Of a stretch of DNA of 32,993 nt, positions 3,619-27,581 are shown in pieces (the stretch's first letter is position 1; every line of letters begins with the position of its first letter). The notes beneath the pieces are model-generated. The model had not been told where the DNA came from. It searched no databases and saw only the letters and a list, made by a program, of their open reading frames with translations. Source of the stretch: a virus (Duplodnaviria > Heunggongvirae > Uroviricota > Caudoviricetes); IMG/VR virus record IMGVR_UViG_2585427793_000011; one strand, given 5' to 3'. Made by a program: the position numbers and the translations under genes.

Positions 3619-5887
3619 AGCCTCCGGGCGTTTTGTCCCTCCGTCAGCATTTGCCGCAGGCACCGGTGAGACGTTTACCGGTGCTTATGCATGGAACGCG
3701 CCACGCGAGGCCGTCGGGCGCGAAAGACCCCTTACACGTGACGAGATGCGTCAGGTGCAAGGTGTTTTATCCACGATTAATCGCCTGCCTTACTTTTTGC
3801 GCTCGCTGTTTACTTCACGCTATGACTACATCCGGCGCAATAAAAGCCCGGTGCACGGGTTTTATTTCCTCACATCCACTTTTCAGCGCCGTTTATGGCC
3901 GCGTATTGAGCGCGTGAATCAGCGCCATGAAATGAACACCGACGCGTCGTTGCTGTTTCTGGCAGAGCGTGACCATTATGCGCGTCTGCCGGGGATGAAT
4001 GACAAGGAGCTGAAAAAGTTTGCCGCCCGTATCTCATCGCAGCTTTTCATGATGTATGAGGAACTCTGCGATGCATGGGTTGATGCACATGGCGAGAAAG
4101 AATCGCTGTTTACAGATGAGGCGCAGGCACATCTGTATGGTCATGTTGCTGGCGCTGCACGTGCTTTCAATATTTCCCCTCTCTACTGGAAAAAATACCG
4201 TAAAGGACAGATGACCACGAGGCAGGCATATTCTGCCATTGCCCGTCTGTTTAACGATGAGTGGTGGACTCATCAGCTTAAAGGCCAGCGTATGCGCTGG
4301 CATGAGGCGTTACTGATTGCTGTCGGGGAGGTCAATAAAGACCGTTCTCCTTATGCCAGTAAACATGCCATTCGTGATGTGCGTGCACGCCGCCAGGCAA
4401 ATCTGGAATTTCTTAAATCGTGTGACCTCGAAAACAGGGAAACCGGCGAGCGCATCGACCTTATCAGTAAGGTGATGGGCAGTATTTCTAATCCTGAAAT
4501 TCGCCGGATGGAGCTGATGAACACCATCGCCGGTATTGAGCGTTACGCCGCCGCAGAGGGTGATGTGGGGATGTTTATCACTCTGACCGCGCCGTCAAAG
4601 TATCACCCGACACGTCAGGTCGGAAAAGGCGAAAGTAAAACCGTCCAGCTAAATCACGGCTGGAATGATGAGGCATTTAATCCAAAGGATGCGCAGCGTT
4701 ATCTCTGCCGCATCTGGAGCCTGATGCGCACGGCATTCAAGGATAATGATTTACAGGTCTACGGTTTGCGAGTCGTCGAGCCACACCACGACGGAACGCC
4801 GCACTGGCATATGATGCTTTTTTGTAATCCACGCCAGCGTAACCAGATTATTGAAATCATGCGTCGTTATGCGCTCAAAGAGGATGGCGACGAAAGAGGA
4901 GCCGCGCGAAACCGTTTTCAGGCAAAACACCTTAACCGGGGCGGTGCTGCGGGATATATCGCGAAATACATCTCAAAAAATATCGACGGCTATGCACTGG
5001 ATGGTCAGCTCGATAACGATACCGGCAGACCGCTGAAAGACACTGCTGCGGCTGTTACCGCATGGGCGTCAACGTGGCGTATCCCGCAATTTAAAACGGT
5101 TGGCCTGCCGACAATGGGGGCTTACCGTGAACTACGCAAACTGCCTCGCGGCGTCAGCATTGCTGATGAGTTTGACGAACGCGTCGAGGCTGCACGCGCC
5201 GCCGCAGACAGTGGTGATTTTGCGTTGTATATCAGCGCGCAGGGTGGGGCAAATGTCCCGCGCGATTGTCAGACTGTCAGGGTTGCCCGTAGCCCGTCGG
5301 ATGACGTTAACGAGTACGAGGAAGAAGTCGAGAGAGTGGTCGGCATTTACGCACCGCATCTCGGCGCGCGTCATATTCATATCACCAGAACCACGGACTG
5401 GCGCATTGTGCCGAAAGTGCCGGTCGTTGAGCCTTTGACTTTAAAAAGCGGCATCGCCGCGCCTCGGAGTCCTGTCAATAACTGTAGAAAGCTCTCCGGT
5501 GGTGATACTTCGTTACCGGCTCCCACACCTTCTGAGCACGCCGCAGCAGTGCTTAATCTGGTTGATGACGGTGTTATCGAATGGAATGACCCGGAGGTCG
5601 TGAGGGCGCTCAGGGGTGCATTAAAACACGGACTGAGAAGACCAAACCGCCAGCAAAGAAACGGAAGCCCGTTAAAACCGCATGAAATAGCGCCATCGGC
5701 CAGACTGACCCGGTCGGAACGAATGCAAATTACCCGTATCCGCGTTGACCTTGCTCAGAACGGTATCAGGCCGCAGCGATGGGAGCTTGAGGCGCTGGCG
5801 CGTGGCGCGACCGTAAATTATGACGGGAAAAAATTCGCTTATCCGGTCGCTGATGGATGGCCAGGGTTCACAACTGTAATAGATTGA
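3608..5887 (+). CDS. A: Replication initiation endonuclease A (rolling-circle, HUH-type)
   Basis: About 760 aa from ATG at 3608 (ORF track starts at TTG 3566); contains HWHMMLF (H-hydrophobic-H) motif; size and position as P2 gpA. Confidence 0.85.
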   Translation: MAVKASGRFVPPSAFAAGTGETFTGAYAWNAPREAVGRERPLTRDEMRQVQGVLSTINRLPYFLRSLFTSRYDYIRRNKSPVHGFYFLTSTFQRRLWPRIERVNQRHEMNTDASLLFLAERDHYARLPGMNDKELKKFAARISSQLFMMYEELCDAWVDAHGEKESLFTDEAQAHLYGHVAGAARAFNISPLYWKKYRKGQMTTRQAYSAIARLFNDEWWTHQLKGQRMRWHEALLIAVGEVNKDRSPYASKHAIRDVRARRQANLEFLKSCDLENRETGERIDLISKVMGSISNPEIRRMELMNTIAGIERYAAAEGDVGMFITLTAPSKYHPTRQVGKGESKTVQLNHGWNDEAFNPKDAQRYLCRIWSLMRTAFKDNDLQVYGLRVVEPHHDGTPHWHMMLFCNPRQRNQIIEIMRRYALKEDGDERGAARNRFQAKHLNRGGAAGYIAKYISKNIDGYALDGQLDNDTGRPLKDTAAAVTAWASTWRIPQFKTVGLPTMGAYRELRKLPRGVSIADEFDERVEAARAAADSGDFALYISAQGGANVPRDCQTVRVARSPSDDVNEYEEEVERVVGIYAPHLGARHIHITRTTDWRIVPKVPVVEPLTLKSGIAAPRSPVNNCRKLSGGDTSLPAPTPSEHAAAVLNLVDDGVIEWNDPEVVRALRGALKHGLRRPNRQQRNGSPLKPHEIAPSARLTRSERMQITRIRVDLAQNGIRPQRWELEALARGATVNYDGKKFAYPVADGWPGFTTVID

Positions 5888-9335: not shown

Positions 9336-10370
9336 TCAGCCGTTGTCAGTGTCCAGTGAGTAGTTTTTAAAGCGGATGACCTCCTGACCGAGCCAGCCGT
9401 TTATTTCCCGAATCCTGTCCTGTAACGGGATAAGCTCATTGCGGACAAAGACCTTTGCCACTTTCTCAATATCACCCAGCGACCCGACGTTCTCCGGCTT
9501 GCCGCCCATCAACTGAAAGGGGATGCGGTGCGCGTCCAGCAGGTCTGCGGCACTGGCTTTTTTGATATTAAAAAAATCGTCCTTCGTCGCCACTTCACTG
9601 AGCGGGATAATTTTAATGCCGTCAGCTTTCCCCTGCGGGGCATAGAGAAACAGGTTTTTAAAGTTGTTGCGGCCTTTCGACTTGACCATGTTTTCGCGGA
9701 GCATTTCGATATCGTTGCGATCCTGCACGGCATCGGTGACGTACATGATGTATCCGGCATGTGCGCCGTTTTCGTAATACTTGCGGCGGAACAGCGTGGC
9801 CGACTCATTCAGCCAGGCAGAGTTAAGGGCGCTGAGATATTCCGGCAGGCCGTACAGTTCCTGATTAATATCCGGCTCCAGCAGATGAAACACGGAGCCG
9901 GGCGCGAAAGGTGTCGGCTCGTTGAAGGACGGCACCCACCAGTAAACATCCTCCTCCACGCCACGGCGGGGATATTTTGCCGGTGAGGTTTCCAGTCTGA
10001 TGACCTTACCGGTGGTGCTGTAACGCTTTTCCAGAAACGCATTACCGAAAACCAGAAAATCCAGCACAAAGCGGCTGAAATCCTGCTGGGAAAGCCACGG
10101 ATGCGGGATAAATGTCGAGGCCAGAATATTACGTTTGACGTAAATCGGTGAGCTGTGATGCACGGCAGCACGCAGGCTTTTTGCCAGACCGGTAAAGCTG
10201 ACCGGCGGCTCATACCATCTGCCGTTACTGATGCACTCGACGTAATCCAGAATGTCACGGCGGTCGAGTACCGGCACCGGCTCACCAAAGGTGAATGCCT
10301 CCATTTTCGGGGCGCTGGCGGTCATTTTTTTTGCCGCAGGTTGCGGTGTTTTCCCTTTTTTCTTGCTCAT
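9336..10370 (-). CDS. Q: Portal (capsid) protein
   Basis: 344 aa, same length and position as P2 gpQ; one-nucleotide stop/start overlap with P. Confidence 0.9.
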   Translation of the reverse strand: MSKKKGKTPQPAAKKMTASAPKMEAFTFGEPVPVLDRRDILDYVECISNGRWYEPPVSFTGLAKSLRAAVHHSSPIYVKRNILASTFIPHPWLSQQDFSRFVLDFLVFGNAFLEKRYSTTGKVIRLETSPAKYPRRGVEEDVYWWVPSFNEPTPFAPGSVFHLLEPDINQELYGLPEYLSALNSAWLNESATLFRRKYYENGAHAGYIMYVTDAVQDRNDIEMLRENMVKSKGRNNFKNLFLYAPQGKADGIKIIPLSEVATKDDFFNIKKASAADLLDAHRIPFQLMGGKPENVGSLGDIEKVAKVFVRNELIPLQDRIREINGWLGQEVIRFKNYSLDTDNG

Positions 10371-12142
10371 CAGTAAAACTCCAGAATGGTGGATGTCAGT
10401 GGGGTGCTGATACCGGCGGTGAGTGGCTCATTTAACAGGGCGTGCATGGTCGCCCAGGCGAGGTCGGCGTGGCTGGCTTCCTCGCTGCGGCTGGCCTCAT
10501 AGGTGGCGCTGCGTCCGCTGCTGGTCATGGTCTTGCGGATAGCCATAAACGAGCTGGTGATGTCGGTGGCGCTGACGTCATATTCCAGACAGCCACGGCG
10601 GATGACGTCTTTTGCCTTGAGCACCATTGCGGTTTTCATTTCCGGCGTGTAGCGGATATCGCGCGCGGCGGGATAGAACGAGCGAACGAGCTGGAACACG
10701 CCGACACCGAGGCCGGTGGCATCAATTCCGATGTATTCGACGTTGTATTTTTCGGTGAGTTTGCGGATGGATTCAGCCTGGGTGGCAAAGTCCATGCCTT
10801 TCCACTGGTGACGCTCAAGTATTCTGAATTTGCCACCGGCCACCACCGGCGGTGCCAGCACCACGCATCCGGCGCTGTCGCCACGGTGTGACGGGTCGTA
10901 ACCAATCCATACCGGGCGGGATCCGAACGGATTGGCGGCAAACGGCGCATAGTCTTCCCATTCTTCCAGCGTGTCGACCATGCAGCGTTGCAGCTCCTCG
11001 AACGGGAACACCGACGCCTTGTCGTCAACAAATTCACACATGAACAGGTTTTTAAAATCGTCGGCGCTGTTTTCGCGTTTAAGCTGCTCAATGTCGAACA
11101 ATGTGCAGCCGCCTTTCAGGGCGTCCTCAATGGTGACAATCTGCCGCCACTGGCCGTCCGCACAGAGAAGCCCACCGGCAAGGGCGTTATGACTGACGTC
11201 GATTTCCACGCGTTCGGCGGCGCTGGCGCGTCCCCGGTTAAACAGTTCACCGGACCAGAACGGGTAGGCGTCGTGCGCCAGCGTGGACGGGGTGGAGAAA
11301 TAGGTCGACCGCAGGTGACTCTGTGAGGCCATACCTGATGCCACCTTACGCAGTACCTGAAAATTCGGGATCCAGAAAATCTCATCGACGTACAGGTCGC
11401 CGTTATGGCTCTGTGCGGTGTTGGAGTTGGTGCCGAGAAAAATCAGTTTTGCACCGTTATTGCCCAGGACAATCGGGTCACCGGTCAGGTCAACGTCAAC
11501 CAGCCGGGCAAAGGCGATGATGTATTCGCGGAACACATACGCCTGCGTTTTACTGGCCGACAGAAAAATCTGGTTATGACCGGTTTTCAGGGCGCGCAGC
11601 AGCGCCTCGCGGGAAAAATAAAACGTCGCGCCAATCTGGCGGGATTTCAGGATATCGCGGATGCGGTGCTCAAGCCCGGCGCGATACCAGTGCAACTGAT
11701 ATTCGAAAGACTGCTCAAAGAAAATCTGCTCCAGCTTTTCGATGGCTTCGTCACTGAAAAAATTCTTTTTCGGTTTGCGACGCCCGCCTTTGTTGCGGTT
11801 AGCGACGTTCGGATTAAGGTCTGCCTCGTTGCCGGTCTGACTGTAACGGTTTACCCGTGCCAGTCGTTCAATCTGGCGTCCCAGAAGGTCAATTTCCTTG
11901 AAGTCACCGCCGGTTTTCTGCGGTTTGATGATGAGCTGAGTCAGCCGCGCTTCCAGACTCATTTCGACACGGCTGATGGGGGCAACGCTGTCCCAGCCGT
12001 CGCGCTGTTTCCAGCTCTGCACCGTCGGGCGTTTCATCTGCAACATGGCGGCAATCTGCGGTACGGAAAACCCCTGCCAGTACAGCAGCGCCGCCTGACG
12101 ACGCGGGTCGTGTAAAAGAGAGGTGTCTGTGGTGATGGTCAT
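10370..12142 (-). CDS. P: Terminase large subunit (ATPase/nuclease)
   Basis: 590 aa from ATG at 12142 (MTITTDTSLL...), same length as P2 gpP; divergent from the O operon. Confidence 0.9.
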   Translation of the reverse strand: MTITTDTSLLHDPRRQAALLYWQGFSVPQIAAMLQMKRPTVQSWKQRDGWDSVAPISRVEMSLEARLTQLIIKPQKTGGDFKEIDLLGRQIERLARVNRYSQTGNEADLNPNVANRNKGGRRKPKKNFFSDEAIEKLEQIFFEQSFEYQLHWYRAGLEHRIRDILKSRQIGATFYFSREALLRALKTGHNQIFLSASKTQAYVFREYIIAFARLVDVDLTGDPIVLGNNGAKLIFLGTNSNTAQSHNGDLYVDEIFWIPNFQVLRKVASGMASQSHLRSTYFSTPSTLAHDAYPFWSGELFNRGRASAAERVEIDVSHNALAGGLLCADGQWRQIVTIEDALKGGCTLFDIEQLKRENSADDFKNLFMCEFVDDKASVFPFEELQRCMVDTLEEWEDYAPFAANPFGSRPVWIGYDPSHRGDSAGCVVLAPPVVAGGKFRILERHQWKGMDFATQAESIRKLTEKYNVEYIGIDATGLGVGVFQLVRSFYPAARDIRYTPEMKTAMVLKAKDVIRRGCLEYDVSATDITSSFMAIRKTMTSSGRSATYEASRSEEASHADLAWATMHALLNEPLTAGISTPLTSTILEFY

Positions 12143-21882: not shown

Positions 21883-24207
21883 ATGAGCACAAAATTCAGA
21901 ACCGTTATCACCACTGCCGGTGCAGCAAAGCTGGCAGCGGCAACCGCGCCGGGAGGGCGGAAGGTCAACATTACCACGATGGCCGTCGGGGATGGCGGTG
22001 GTAAATTGCCTGTCCCGGATGCCGGACAGACCGGGCTTATCCATGAAGTCTGGCGACATGCGCTGAACAAAATCAGCCAGGACAAACGAAACAGTAATTA
22101 TATTATCGCAGAGCTGGTTATTCCGCCGGAGGTGGGCGGTTTCTGGATGCGTGAGCTTGGCCTGTACGATGATGCGGGAACATTAATTGCCGTGGCGAAC
22201 ATGGCCGAAAGTTATAAGCCAGCTCTTGCCGAAGGCTCAGGGCGTTCGCAGACCTGTCGCATGGTCATCATCGTCAGCAGTGTGACCTCAGTGGAGCTGA
22301 CCATTGACACCACAACGGTGATGGCGACGCAGGATTACGTTGATGACAAAATTGCAGAACATGAACAGTCACGACGTCACCCGGACGCCTCGCTGACCGC
22401 AAAAGGTTTTACTCAGTTAAGCAGTGCGACCAACAGCACGTCTGAAACACTGGCTGCAACGCCGAAAGCGGTTAAGGCCGCATATGACCTGGCTAACGGG
22501 AAATATACCGCACAGGACGCTACCACAGAGCGAAAAGGTCTTGTCCAGCTCAGTAGTGCCACCAACAGCACGTCTGAAACGCTTGCCGCAACACCAAAAG
22601 CGGTAAAAGCAGCATATGACCTTGCTAACGGGAAATATACCGCACAGGACGCTACCACAGCGCGAAAAGGTCTTGTCCAGCTCAGTAGTGCCACCAACAG
22701 CACGTCTGAAACGCTTGCCGCAACACCAAAAGCGGTAAAAGCAGCATATGACCTTGCTAACGGGAAATATACCGCACAGGACGCTACCACAGCGCGAAAA
22801 GGTCTTGTCCAGCTCAGTAGTGCCACCAACAGCACGTCTGAAACGCTTGCCGCAACACCAAAAGCGGTAAAAGCAGCATATGACCTTGCTAACGGGAAAT
22901 ATACCGCACAGGACGCTACCACAGCGCGAAAAGGTCTTGTCCAGCTCAGTAGTGCCACCAACAGCACGTCTGAAACGCTTGCCGCAACACCAAAAGCGGT
23001 AAAAGCAGCATATGACCTTGCTAACGGGAAATATACCGCACAGGACGCCACCACAGCGCGAAAAGGTCTTGTCCAGCTCAGTAGCGTCACCAACAGCGAT
23101 TCTGAAACGCTTGCGGCAACGCCAAAGGCGGTAAAGGCCGCGTATGACCTTGCTAACGGGAAATACACTGCACAGGACGCCACCACGGCGCGGAAAGGTC
23201 TTGTTCAGCTCAGTAGCGCCGCCAACAGTGATTCTGAAACGCTGGCCGCAACACCAAAAGCAGTGAAGTCTGCCTATGACAATGCTGAAAAACGTCTTCA
23301 GAAAGATCAGAACGGTGCGGATATTCCGGGAAAGGATACCTTCACGAAAAATATCGGTGCCTGTCGTGCTTATAGCGGCGCTTTGAGCACTGAAGCCGGA
23401 AACTGGACAACCGCTCAGTTTATTGAATGGCTGGATTCCCGTGGTGCATTTAATCATCCGTACTGGATGTGCAAATGTTCATGGTCATACGGCAATAATA
23501 AAATTATTACCGATACTGGCTGTGGAACTATTCATCTTGCAGGTTGCGTTATTGAGGTTATGGGTAATAAAGGTGCCATGACCATCCGTGTAACAACACC
23601 AAGCACTTCTACCGGAGGCGGCACCACTAACGCTCAATTCACTTATATTAATCATGGTGATGCTTATGCCCCCGGCTGGCGACGAGACTACAACACGAAA
23701 AACCAGCAGCCTGCATTTGCTTTAGGGCAAACAGGAAGCAGGGTTGCAAATGATAAAGCTGTTGGCTGGAACTGGAATAGCGGTGTTTATGATGCAGATA
23801 TCAGCGGTGCATCGACATTAATCCTCCACTTCAATATGAATGCGGGGAGTTGCCCTGCCGTACAGTTCCGTGTGAATTATAAGAACGGCGGTATTTTTTA
23901 TCGTTCAGCACGTGATGGTTATGGATTTGAGGCTAACTGGTCAGAGTTTTACACCACAACCCGCAAACCCTCTGCGGGAGATGTTGGTGCATATACCAAA
24001 GCTGAATCGGATTCTCGCTATGTACGAGATATTCGCCTGGGCACACGTGTTGTTCAGACTATGCAAAAAGGTGTGATGTATGAAAAATCAGGCCATGTAA
24101 TTACAGGGCTTGGTATTGTCGGTGAAGTCGATGGTGATGACCCCGCAGTATTCAGACCAATACAAAAATACATTAATGGCACATGGTATAACGTCGCACA
24201 GGTGTAA
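21883..24207 (+). CDS. H: Tail fibre protein with expanded internal repeat array
   Basis: 774-aa ORF after I and before the fibre assembly chaperone; contains about 6.7 tandem 44-aa repeats (KGLVQLSSATNSTSETLAATPKAVKAAYDLANGKYTAQDATTAR). Confidence 0.9.
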   Translation: MSTKFRTVITTAGAAKLAAATAPGGRKVNITTMAVGDGGGKLPVPDAGQTGLIHEVWRHALNKISQDKRNSNYIIAELVIPPEVGGFWMRELGLYDDAGTLIAVANMAESYKPALAEGSGRSQTCRMVIIVSSVTSVELTIDTTTVMATQDYVDDKIAEHEQSRRHPDASLTAKGFTQLSSATNSTSETLAATPKAVKAAYDLANGKYTAQDATTERKGLVQLSSATNSTSETLAATPKAVKAAYDLANGKYTAQDATTARKGLVQLSSATNSTSETLAATPKAVKAAYDLANGKYTAQDATTARKGLVQLSSATNSTSETLAATPKAVKAAYDLANGKYTAQDATTARKGLVQLSSATNSTSETLAATPKAVKAAYDLANGKYTAQDATTARKGLVQLSSVTNSDSETLAATPKAVKAAYDLANGKYTAQDATTARKGLVQLSSAANSDSETLAATPKAVKSAYDNAEKRLQKDQNGADIPGKDTFTKNIGACRAYSGALSTEAGNWTTAQFIEWLDSRGAFNHPYWMCKCSWSYGNNKIITDTGCGTIHLAGCVIEVMGNKGAMTIRVTTPSTSTGGGTTNAQFTYINHGDAYAPGWRRDYNTKNQQPAFALGQTGSRVANDKAVGWNWNSGVYDADISGASTLILHFNMNAGSCPAVQFRVNYKNGGIFYRSARDGYGFEANWSEFYTTTRKPSAGDVGAYTKAESDSRYVRDIRLGTRVVQTMQKGVMYEKSGHVITGLGIVGEVDGDDPAVFRPIQKYINGTWYNVAQV
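22402..23298 (+). repeat. In-frame 132-bp tandem repeat array within H (about 6.7 copies, several nucleotide-identical)
   Basis: Repeat units begin at 22402, 22534, 22666, 22798, 22930, 23062, 23194; copies at 22534, 22666 and 22798 are nucleotide-identical and the 22930 copy differs by one base. Confidence 0.9.
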
Positions 24208-24210
24208 TTT

Positions 24211-24738
24211 ATGCAGCATTTAAAAAATATTACTGCGGGTAATCCCAAAACTGTTGCCCAATATCAACTGACAAAAAATTTTGATGTTGTCTGGTTATGG
24301 TCTGAAGACGGAAAAAACTGGTATGAGGAAGTAAGTAATTTTCAGGAAGACACGATAAAGATTGTTTACGACGAGAATAATATAATTGTCGGCATCACCA
24401 GAGATGCTTCAACGCTTAACCCTGAAGGTTTTAGCGTTGTCGAGGTTCCTGATATTACCGCCAACCGACGTGCTGATGACTCAGGTAAATGGATGTTTAA
24501 GGATGGTGCCGTGATTAAGCGGATTTATACGGCAGACGAACAGCATCAACTGGCAGAATCACAAAAGGCAACTTTACTTTCCGAAGCTGAATCCGTGATT
24601 TTGCTGCTGGAGCGCGCTGTCAGGCTGAATATGGCAACAGAGGAGGAACGCAGCCGACTGGAAGCATGGGAACGCTACAGTGTTCTGGTCAGTCGTGTGG
24701 ATCCTGCAAATCCTGAATGGCCGGAAATGCCGCAGTAA
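24211..24738 (+). CDS. G: Tail fibre assembly chaperone
   Basis: 175 aa, P2 gpG length; immediately downstream of H. Confidence 0.85.
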
Positions 24739-24801
24739 GTTGTATGAGCTCTGGTGGGAGCTTACATATCTATGGCACAGAGTAAAGTCTAATCTGACAG
24801 T

Positions 24802-24830
24802 CCGCTCTGTGCCAAGAGCGGAAGTTTTCC
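24802..24830 (+). terminator. Putative intrinsic terminator of the V-G operon
   Basis: Hairpin CCGCTCT-GTGCCA-AGAGCGG followed by AAGTTTTCC. Confidence 0.45.
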
Positions 24831-24989
24831 AGCAAATTGTCTTGGTCAAAAGAGAGGCAGACCAGTTAGCCCCATATTTTTCACGCTAGTCATTTCTATT
24901 AAAGATATATAAGCCCATATCTATATTAATAACTTAAAATAAATTCAACAGAGTGAGTAACTAAGAGCATAAATGCATCCTTTTACTAA

Positions 24990-26072
24990 CTAATTATTTT
25001 GGCAAGTGCTGTCAGCGAGCAGAGAAAAATCACTATTTTCAATTGCGTTCACAAGTTTTGCAATATCATGATTTTTTTCATAAAAGATATATAACGCCGC
25101 ATACAGATTCATTTCGGGTTCAATCTTTGGAAATGACACGCTGATCATACGTTCATTTTTGATATATGCATCATCACCCTTATAGTACATTCCAACATAA
25201 TTGTCCCATCGTTCAATAAGACTCATCTCGAACAAATCATCAAGGTCTTTTGAAAAAGATTGATAGTTTGTATCGTCAATCATTAGTGGCCCGAAAAGTT
25301 GCTTTTCAGGAAACTCGATTTTCGTGCTTGTACTCTTCGGTATATTTATCTCACTGATAATTTTGCTTAAAAGATTTCTAGCAGATAAAGTGCATTGACG
25401 CAGTCTATTTTTAAAAAGTTCTAGAAATTCATATACGATCTGCTCACCTTCGTCAACATCATCAAACCATTCATTAGTATGAATTAACGCGTTGAAAAGA
25501 CTCAAGTCAAAGGGGATCGGCTTGTTTTTTGATACACAATACCCCTGATTGAAAGCAACGTCCCCAGGAGAGAAATAATCCGAGTATTCTTTCCGGGCAA
25601 GGGTCAAAAAATCACGCTGAAATTCTAAAGTTTGTCCCATTACCTTTTCGACTAGGTCGTACAATGTGAAATATTTGCACTGAAAATCGTCAGGGTGTTC
25701 ACGTACGTTATCAGGTAGGCGTTCAGCCGTGAGGACGAAAAACCAAATCTCGTCAAACTTACCCTTTAACTTCTCATTGTTTCGAAGTTTGTCTAATGTT
25801 TTCTGATACTTAACCTTTCTTGCAGTGGCAGTCATTTGCAAACCTAAGCGCTTTCCCGGTTGCACATAGTCGAGACCAGGGTAGTTTTGGGATATCCTAT
25901 TCATATCCTCAAACTGCTCTCCCCAGGCATGATTGATTAGAGGCAATAGCGAACTCTCTTGGGCTGTAGAAAGATCATTTAAATTGCTGCTGGTTTGCAT
26001 CTTGATTTGAGTAGCAAGTTTCGTTGCAAAGCTAGTTAATTCTTCCCTGTTTTTCATTTGCTCTGGTTTCAA
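24990..26072 (-). CDS. Hypothetical protein (Z/fun-locus cargo gene, candidate defence/abortive-infection protein)
   Basis: 355-360-aa AT-rich ORF counter-oriented to the flanking tail genes; start either TTG at 26072 (GGAG upstream) or ATG at 26057. Confidence 0.7.
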   Translation of the reverse strand: MKPEQMKNREELTSFATKLATQIKMQTSSNLNDLSTAQESSLLPLINHAWGEQFEDMNRISQNYPGLDYVQPGKRLGLQMTATARKVKYQKTLDKLRNNEKLKGKFDEIWFFVLTAERLPDNVREHPDDFQCKYFTLYDLVEKVMGQTLEFQRDFLTLARKEYSDYFSPGDVAFNQGYCVSKNKPIPFDLSLFNALIHTNEWFDDVDEGEQIVYEFLELFKNRLRQCTLSARNLLSKIISEINIPKSTSTKIEFPEKQLFGPLMIDDTNYQSFSKDLDDLFEMSLIERWDNYVGMYYKGDDAYIKNERMISVSFPKIEPEMNLYAALYIFYEKNHDIAKLVNAIENSDFSLLADSTCQNN

Positions 26073-26266
26073 TTTAATTTCTCCAGCCGATATTCGTATC
26101 TGCCATTGTGACTTACTCTCTATTGATTAACAAATAGAAGCAGGTTTACCTTTTCTATAAGAAGGATGCTAATGTCTGCTTTTCGCTCAAAATAGGCTGT
26201 CAGATTTGATAGCGTTTGGGCTATGTAAATTGTCAGTTGAAAAATGAGTGAGTACAAATCAGGACG

Positions 26267-26293
26267 GGCGGGCGAGTTGCCCGCCTTTTCTTT
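26267..26293 (+). terminator. Intrinsic terminator-like hairpin upstream of FI
   Basis: GGCGGGC-GAGTT-GCCCGCC followed by TTTTCTTT; no plus-strand ORF of 60 aa or more upstream of it. Confidence 0.45.
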
Positions 26294-26390
26294 AATCTGT
26301 TGTTTCATCCACTGACCAGTCAGGTCAAATAGCGTCTTATGCACTGCCCAACAGAAAATAGTTGCACCCATTAACCACGGAGTTAAACGG

Positions 26391-27581
26391 ATGAGTGACT
26401 ATCATCACGGCGTGCAGGTGCTGGAGATTAACGACGGCACCCGCGTCATTTCCACCGTATCCACCGCCATTGTTGGCATGGTCTGCACGGCCAGCGATGC
26501 GGATGCGGAAATCTTCCCCCTCAATAAACCGGTGCTGATTACCAATGTGCAGAGCGCAATTGCAAAGGCCGGTAAAAAAGGCACGCTGGCGGCGTCGTTA
26601 CAGGCCATTGCTGACCAGTCAAAACCGGTCACCGTTGTCGTACGTGTGGAAGACGGCACCGGCGAAGACGAAGAAACGAAACTCGCGCAGACCGTTTCCA
26701 ATATCATCGGCACCACCGACGAAAACGGTCAGTACACCGGACTGAAAGCCCTGCTGGCGGCGGAGTCAGTAACCGGTGTTAAACCGCGTATTCTCGGCGT
26801 GCCGGGACTGGACACCAAAGAGGTGGCTGTTGCACTGGCATCAGTCTGTCAGAAGCTGCGCGCTTTCGGGTATATCAGCGCATGGGGCTGTAAGACCATT
26901 TCCGAGGTGAAAGCCTACCGCCAGAATTTCAGCCAGCGTGAGCTGATGGTCATCTGGCCGGATTTCCTCGCATGGGATACGGTCGCCAGTACCACCGCCA
27001 CCGCGTATGCCACCGCCCGTGCGCTGGGCCTGCGCGCTAAAATCGACCAGGAGCAGGGCTGGCATAAAACGCTGTCCAACGTCGGGGTAAACGGTGTTAC
27101 CGGCATCAGTGCCTCTGTATTCTGGGATTTGCAGGAGTCCGGCACCGATGCTGACCTGTTGAACGAGTCAGGTGTCACAACGCTGATTCGCCGTGACGGT
27201 TTCCGCTTCTGGGGTAACCGTACCTGCTCTGATGACCCGCTGTTCCTCTTTGAAAACTACACCCGCACCGCGCAGGTGCTGGCCGACACGATGGCTGAGG
27301 CGCACATGTGGGCGGTGGACAAGCCCATCACTGCAACGCTGATTCGCGACATCGTTGACGGCATCAATGCCAAATTCCGTGAGCTGAAAACAAACGGCTA
27401 TATCGTGGATGCGACCTGCTGGTTCAGCGAAGAATCCAACGATGCGGAAACCCTTAAGGCCGGAAAACTGTATATCGACTACGACTATACCCCGGTGCCT
27501 CCTCTTGAAAACCTGACCCTGCGCCAGCGTATTACCGATAAATACCTGGCAAATCTGGTCACCTCGGTTAACAGCAATTAA
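26391..27581 (+). CDS. FI: Tail sheath protein
   Basis: 396 aa, P2 gpFI length; first gene of the tail operon. Confidence 0.9.
   Translation: MSDYHHGVQVLEINDGTRVISTVSTAIVGMVCTASDADAEIFPLNKPVLITNVQSAIAKAGKKGTLAASLQAIADQSKPVTVVVRVEDGTGEDEETKLAQTVSNIIGTTDENGQYTGLKALLAAESVTGVKPRILGVPGLDTKEVAVALASVCQKLRAFGYISAWGCKTISEVKAYRQNFSQRELMVIWPDFLAWDTVASTTATAYATARALGLRAKIDQEQGWHKTLSNVGVNGVTGISASVFWDLQESGTDADLLNESGVTTLIRRDGFRFWGNRTCSDDPLFLFENYTRTAQVLADTMAEAHMWAVDKPITATLIRDIVDGINAKFRELKTNGYIVDATCWFSEESNDAETLKAGKLYIDYDYTPVPPLENLTLRQRITDKYLANLVTSVNSN

Follow-up and report, generated by a model that had tools for sequence, protein, structure and literature searches.

The window, that is, the whole 32,993-nt stretch of phage DNA analyzed here, contains a short cargo region between two late genes of a P2-like phage. 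To its left lies gene G, which encodes a tail-fibre assembly protein (24211-24738, plus strand; Caudo_TAP in Pfam), and to its right lies FI, the tail sheath gene (26391-27581, plus strand). Between them, and oriented against both, is a single open reading frame (ORF) that occupies exactly positions 24990-26072 of the minus strand and encodes 360 amino acids (aa); the preliminary description of one AT-rich, counter-oriented ORF at this site is thus borne out. Its GC content is 0.35-0.42 (overall 0.38), versus 0.54-0.59 in the flanking late genes. Databases already label the product "SMEK domain-containing protein". The ORF is the only gene within a cassette of about 1.35 kb (24825..26169), whose borders are defined by alignment of the flanks with those of phage Wphi and of P2-EC31 and whose DNA is not common to P2-like phages bearing other cargo. 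When such phages are compared with the window by megablast, the matches are confined to the flanks (18% of the query), and different genes, for example orf44 in Wphi, are found in between.

The slot is bounded by inverted repeats. The left arm (24788..24822) contains a hairpin that follows gene G as well as the core AATCTGACAGTC, comparable to the "left inverted repeat" of AJ512677; the right arm (26175..26209), with the core GGCTGTCAGATT, matches the "Right inverted repeat" of the same record. AJ512677 is the GenBank entry for the P2-EC31 "proviral Z-region", and its annotated repeats correspond to those of the window. The SMEK gene is the cargo of the P2-like Z/fun hotspot, situated between G and FI and bounded by inverted repeats, so the earlier placement in this variable locus also stands. 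Sequence matching the flanks occurs in 980 of 5,426 complete E. coli genomes, but the SMEK cargo occurs in only 21; the strains, among those listed, are mostly O145:H28 or O145. Z/fun is a recognized defence locus of P2 (PMC13586616). In P2-EC31 the gene that occupies the slot, ORF1 (AJ512677 321-1409), was deposited as a "putative lysogenic conversion protein" and is a full-length Shedu SduA (PADLOC PDLC04067, E 9e-163), and this shows directly that nuclease defences of a validated kind are carried in the Z slot.

A second, 83-aa ORF (26120-26371, minus strand) matches phrog_11095 (E 2.5e-50). Since its DNA belongs to the phage backbone and shows >90% conservation among P2-like phages whose cargo differs, the ORF is placed outside the cassette and was rejected as a partner of the SMEK gene. 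It holds a terminator-like hairpin on the plus strand (26266-26286), and the region is probably regulatory DNA, comprising the end of the H-G operon and the late-promoter region of FI, that gene callers have called as a protein. Further to the left, tail-fibre gene H (21883-24207) contains 6.4 tandem copies of a 132-bp (44-aa) repeat (22423-23261, 95% matches), and the fibre shaft is thereby longer than in phage vB_EcoM-12474III (774 aa versus 642 aa).

Two start codons are available to the 360-aa ORF, the TTG at 26072-26070 and an in-frame ATG at 26057, which would give a protein of 355 aa, the length of PHROG 36490; the stop codon is at 24990-24992. The TTG is favoured because a Shine-Dalgarno sequence, GGAG (26084-26081, minus strand), lies 8 nt before it and is visible in the upstream alignment, because the residues K-P-E-Q that precede Met6 are conserved at the protein level in homologs, because the TTG itself is kept in four aligned enterobacterial homologs, and because the RefSeq annotation of vB_EcoM-12474III comprises the same 1083 nt. 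Comparison with homologs from Morganella, Citrobacter, Enterobacter, and one viral metagenome contig, four in all and with identities of about 72%, gives a dN/dS of 0.15-0.22 for the full ORF. Taken by part, the values are 0.11-0.20 for the N-terminal domain and 0.16-0.27 for the C-terminal module. With both halves constrained in this way, the frame is more than a chance ORF; 24990-26072 is a real gene under constraint.

The DNA upstream of the gene is also conserved. In five unrelated insertion contexts about 130 nt of upstream sequence is retained, with a pattern of TTGTTA, a spacer of 16-17 nt, (C/A)A(C/A/T)AAT, and then GGAGAAA and the TTG start. Because this upstream stretch, the Shine-Dalgarno sequence, and the TTG are kept together in all five, the gene can be said to move as a self-expressing unit. 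In the window the promoter-like element (26105..26133, minus strand), recognized in the upstream alignment of homologs, consists of TTGTTA (26133-26128), 17 nt, and CACAAT (26110-26105). A scan with a promoter consensus upstream of the SMEK gene returned no minus-strand site, as the element scores 8/12 and falls under the threshold; conservation is what suggests it as a candidate promoter. The conserved stretch (26073-26230, minus strand) runs past this element into sequence that resembles the right inverted repeat and its hairpin (TTTGAGCGAA.AGC.GACATTAGCATC), and such repeat-like sequence is present upstream of the gene even on a 110-kb non-P2 contig. This hints that part of what appears as the "repeat" of the slot moves along with the cassettes.

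The N-terminal part of the protein (residues 1-165; 25578..26072, minus strand) is a SMEK_N/Mrr-like domain of the PD-(D/E)xK type. Membership in the SMEK_N family is established by scores well above the curated thresholds, both in Pfam (PF21941: 1.6e-19, 70.6 bits versus a cut-off of 27) and in NCBIfam (NF033859: 1.9e-24, 85.3 bits versus a cut-off of 30), the kind of profile search that had been suggested as a check. The initial impression of a SMEK-type N-terminal module was therefore correct, although the domain does not stop near residue 130 but continues to about 165; the accompanying term "Abi-like" is not upheld, as no Abi profile in Pfam or PADLOC matches the protein at E ≤ 1. Residues 1-120 are basic (pI ~9.4). 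A homolog of solved structure is the "Mrr domain" of the protein that partners a short Argonaute in Kordia (E 5e-8, residues 5-117), and E39, D68, Q79, T81, and K88 align with it (PDB 26bh_D). A PDB profile search that contained the Kordia sequence is circular and is excluded from the evidence. The corresponding complex, SMEK-APAZ/KjAgo, has been described as a nuclease whose collateral DNase activity is weak, and in the related SPARDA systems the nuclease heads are activated by target recognition and by filament formation (PMC10810196; PMC12205087; bioRxiv 10.1101/2023.06.08.544223). A literature search found no paper on the active site of SMEK-APAZ.

At the level of fold, the best matches of the N-terminal domain are the catalytic domains of AspBHI, MspJI, LlaBIII, and AF1548, which are modification-dependent or Mrr-type enzymes, and the top viral structural matches of the model (in BFVD) are "type IV Mrr domain" proteins; Foldseek searches of PDB and BFVD gave no match with E < 1e-3. 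Taken together with the Kordia homology, these likenesses suggest that the domain is a PD-(D/E)xK-type nuclease head that would be able to cut DNA. The motif itself is atypical: Q79-M-T81 stands for the canonical (D/E/Q)-x-K, with Thr in the position of Lys. Consequently, one might propose that the head is catalytically dead and that the protein is a binder, a regulator, or a decoy, such as an anti-defence factor or a scaffold, and the failure of hhalign to relate the SMEK profile to the one canonical Mrr_cat protein that was compared is compatible with this. However, the same Q-x-T with a downstream Lys is present in the Kordia domain, whose complex is the reported nuclease (PMC10810196; PMC12205087). 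In addition, five residues (D33, E39, Q79, T81, and K88) do not vary at all in the N-domain alignment to which the Kordia sequence belongs, and D68 hardly varies in the 22-member alignment, as would be expected of an active site; within the family, K86 is conserved at 95%. The N-terminal domain also has the lower dN/dS of the two halves. A dead head is thus very unlikely.

A variable linker (residues 170-184; 25521..25565, minus strand), whose length differs within the family alignment and whose predicted confidence (pLDDT) is <50 at residues 170-182, leads to the C-terminal module (residues 185-360; 24993..25520, minus strand). This module is specific to the family and strongly acidic, with a net charge of -14 and a pI of 4.4. 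The structure model, built from a 22-sequence alignment, has a pLDDT of 84 (an earlier model from 11 close homologs, with a pLDDT of 57, was discarded), and it predicts for the module a helical fold that also includes a winged-helix-like portion. All 22 members share the acidic character (net -7 to -19), and it includes the putative recognition helix and wing. An invariant arginine, R232, sits in a mildly basic pair of helices. Thus, the protein is divided by charge into a basic N-terminal domain and an acidic C-terminal module. Among 1.84 billion representative proteins the module has 10 matches, identical in architecture and always joined to SMEK_N, and its profile gives only noise against PDB and Pfam (Msh3 at E 0.65, and scattered winged-helix matches of single members). 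An acidic module private to one family is an unusual feature, and one that is so far undescribed.

E. coli Mrr consists of a winged helix and a PD-(D/E)xK domain. Given that precedent, the fold matches to AspBHI, MspJI, LlaBIII, and AF1548, the "type IV Mrr domain" labels of the viral matches, and the position of R232 in mildly basic helices, the protein could be read as a Type IV-like restriction nuclease, or one directed by some other DNA feature: the winged helix, a fold of a kind that often binds DNA, would read a modified base or a phage-specific structure, and the head would cut the invading DNA without death of the cell. This reading is weakened by the acidic surface of the module, which in every one of the 22 members extends to the parts that would have to contact DNA. 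Furthermore, neither Mrr_cat (PF04471) nor Mrr_N matches the protein, so that its likeness to Mrr, AspBHI, and MspJI exists at the level of fold only; compared with Mrr, the order of the two domains is reversed, Thr replaces the motif Lys, and the second domain is acidic, unlike a DNA-binding one. The protein is therefore not a canonical Mrr, and direct restriction of this type is rather unlikely.

The family is rare. Full-length members form 17 clusters in 5.8 billion sequences, and a scan of the GTDB species representatives with a single peptide pattern found one locus. The contexts of the gene are all mobile elements, large phage-plasmid-like plasmids among them, and in most of them it stands beside defence-type genes. 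A Morganella P2-like prophage carries it in the same G/FI slot. In Acinetobacter prophages it is at the integrase-proximal end, beside AbiH, SRAP, and UmuDC, and in an Enterobacter kobei prophage region with siphophage-type tail genes it again adjoins SRAP and UmuDC. In a Citrobacter Rep3/Dam/RecA element and in 60-110-kb viral contigs or Klebsiella plasmids its neighbours are a DUF4942 methyltransferase, an Mrr-like PDC-S02-type nuclease, and a PDC-M36A-like ATPase. On a 12.5-kb mobilizable Acinetobacter plasmid it lies beside an AriA/Old/GajA-like ATPase and a C5 methylase.

Mobility of this kind, together with the position of the cassette between inverted repeats, would also fit a selfish or maintenance function, in which the protein acts as a free-standing endonuclease of the homing type, as a factor in addiction or competition, or as a DNA-damage-related nuclease that works with SRAP and UmuDC; the adjacency of SRAP and UmuDC in both Acinetobacter and Enterobacter, and the frequency of another SMEK protein on IncX conjugative plasmids, can be cited for it. 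However, the same slot with the same repeats holds unrelated cargo, namely Shedu and orf44, and mobility therefore belongs to the slot and not to the SMEK gene. Unlike a homing gene, the family occupies non-homologous sites in unrelated elements, and neither SRAP nor UmuDC occurs in the P2-like, Klebsiella-plasmid, or ANC 3903 contexts. Such a function is accordingly judged quite unlikely.

Two features of these neighbourhoods deserve description in their own right. The SRAP gene (PF02586) is located some 150 nt upstream of its SMEK-family neighbour, divergently oriented in Acinetobacter and on the same strand in Enterobacter kobei, with UmuD/UmuC close by; this link recurs across genera, and the SMEK-family proteins concerned are only 32-72% identical to that of the window. 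In the Acinetobacter prophages an ORF of 353 aa (at 9958-11019 of one such Acinetobacter record) always follows the SMEK-family gene at a distance of 27-31 nt on the same strand. It contains a PD-(D/E)xK-like motif (PDF...VEVK), and neither Pfam nor PADLOC gives a match for it; its product might act as a partner or as another nuclease in its own right. The idea that it is required as a partner was rejected, because it is absent from all the enterobacterial contexts and from ANC 3903.

Among known systems, the closest in its N-terminal domain is SMEK(Mrr)-APAZ, the partner of KjAgo in Kordia jejudonensis ("SPARMA"; Aga_REase-PNTD1-PNTD2 in PADLOC; PDB 26bh). The two proteins share a homologous N-terminal head with the D...Q-x-T...K arrangement, and both consist of a head, a linker, and a non-catalytic module that controls the head in SMEK-APAZ and would do so in the window protein. 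In contrast to SMEK-APAZ, the window protein lacks APAZ; its PADLOC match covers only positions 3-113 of the 463 in the profile. No Argonaute or PIWI gene is present beside the window gene or in the related contexts that were inspected, and with no Argonaute there is no sensing through a guide RNA. The C-terminus is unrelated and acidic, and the gene stands alone in a prophage. It is thus outside the SMEK-APAZ system of prokaryotic Argonautes (pAgos).

Shedu (SduA, DUF4263) offers a parallel of another sort, as a single-gene PD-(D/E)xK nuclease with a variable non-catalytic domain that in P2-EC31 holds this very slot. Its nuclease domain is C-terminal, whereas that of the window protein is N-terminal; the window protein has no PADLOC match to SduA, and BLASTP against the SduA of P2-EC31 gives an E of 0.37. 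A central P-loop NTPase of the NACHT/NB-ARC type, the hallmark of STAND/Avs proteins, was not found in the window protein. With the other Z/fun cargo (fun(Z), Wphi orf44, and P2-EC31 ORF1) the gene has in common the slot, the flanking inverted repeats, and the logic of cargo, but it has no sequence similarity to orf44 or to ORF1/SduA and, unlike those two, is oriented against the late genes. The window protein probably works as Shedu and the pAgo-associated nuclease effectors do, with a non-catalytic module that gates a PD-(D/E)xK head. None of the models in PADLOC-DB 2.0 describes a protein composed of SMEK and the acidic module, and a literature search found neither a paper that treats a stand-alone SMEK protein as a defence nor experimental data.

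The reading we prefer, at a probability of about one half, is that the gene is an autonomous, self-expressed Z/fun cargo, or "moron", whose single product combines sensor and nuclease and guards the lysogen against other phages. Counted in its favour are the SMEK_N scores, the Kordia homology, the conserved residues of catalytic type, and a C-terminal module that is constrained and exclusive to SMEK_N, as well as the conserved promoter-like element, Shine-Dalgarno sequence, and TTG, a defence slot that elsewhere holds Shedu, and neighbours of defence type. In the mechanism proposed, the basic SMEK/Mrr-like domain would be the effector that cuts DNA, and the acidic module would be the regulatory part that holds the nuclease inactive in the lysogen. 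The signal to which the module responds would be supplied by an infecting phage, and a protein is considered the most likely signal, ahead of DNA. Activation would then probably consist of relief of the block in cis, the bringing together of nuclease heads, or both, a mode that is proposed by analogy with the target-triggered assembly of nuclease-APAZ/Argonaute complexes. Once active, the nuclease would degrade DNA and stop the superinfecting phage, possibly at a cost to the cell. What the analysis establishes is that the gene is real and rare, which domain and slot it represents, that the cassette is autonomous, and that the two modules differ in charge; the activity of the nuclease, the sensing by the C-terminal module, the way of activation, and the defence phenotype are inferred.

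A more specific version of this sensor-nuclease, and one that is quite a long shot, is that the acidic module is a nucleic-acid mimic that masks the basic head in cis as a decoy. A DNA-binding protein of the phage, such as SSB, a recombinase, or an anti-restriction factor, would capture the decoy and thereby free and cluster the nuclease. If this were true, the SMEK head would be a portable "warhead" common to guide-directed (pAgo) and protein-sensing immunity, and the family would be a new type of single-gene immune system.

The earlier suggestion of a candidate defence protein is strengthened by the SMEK head that it shares with short-Argonaute effectors, by Shedu in the P2-EC31 slot, and by the AbiH, Mrr-like, and AriA/Old-like neighbours, although all of this falls short of proof. 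Nuclease-plus-sensor defences encoded by single genes in prophage hotspots are now common, and a SMEK cassette of this type is for that reason no major surprise. If the phenotype is confirmed, the cassette would be a compact (1.35-kb), single-gene, self-promoted defence, and the SMEK/Mrr-like head of short-Argonaute systems would be seen to work also without Argonaute, coupled to an undescribed sensor module. This would add to the view that immune effectors can be exchanged among sensors and would provide the Argonaute field with a simpler system in which to study the switching-on of this nuclease head. The cassette would also be further evidence that unannotated cargo of the P2 Z/fun locus is defence, and its presence in prophages of E. 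coli O145:H28 could affect the phage susceptibility of these strains.

The SMEK_N domain is modular and is found with at least three unrelated C-termini: APAZ, the type present on IncX plasmids, and the acidic module of the window (the fusion partners were taken from a plasmid collection; the N-domain search of a large database yielded only fragments of 100-143 aa). The IncX protein (WP_001328098.1, on pMAS2027) is of similar size, is likewise carried on a mobile element, and has a SMEK_N domain 35% identical to that of the window protein over 96 residues (E 7e-14). Its C-terminal half, however, is unrelated (hhalign probability 0.3%), and its gene sits among conjugative-transfer genes rather than in a cargo slot of a hotspot. 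On pMAS2027 (NC_013503, IncX1/IncX3) this 321-aa protein is encoded at 3896-4861, between topB/hha/hns and the T4SS genes, with a gene for a HEPN-domain protein nearby. About 65 other plasmids, mostly conjugative and enterobacterial, have a similar match that is confined to the N-terminal domain. Finally, a weak, partial match (31% identity across residues 19-95; E 1e-4) occurs at positions 8-238 of the record of Klebsiella phage ST15-OXA48phi14.1, at its extreme end and beneath a feature annotated as "regulator of acetyl CoA synthetase"; this may be a truncated SMEK_N gene that is split by the ends of the record.
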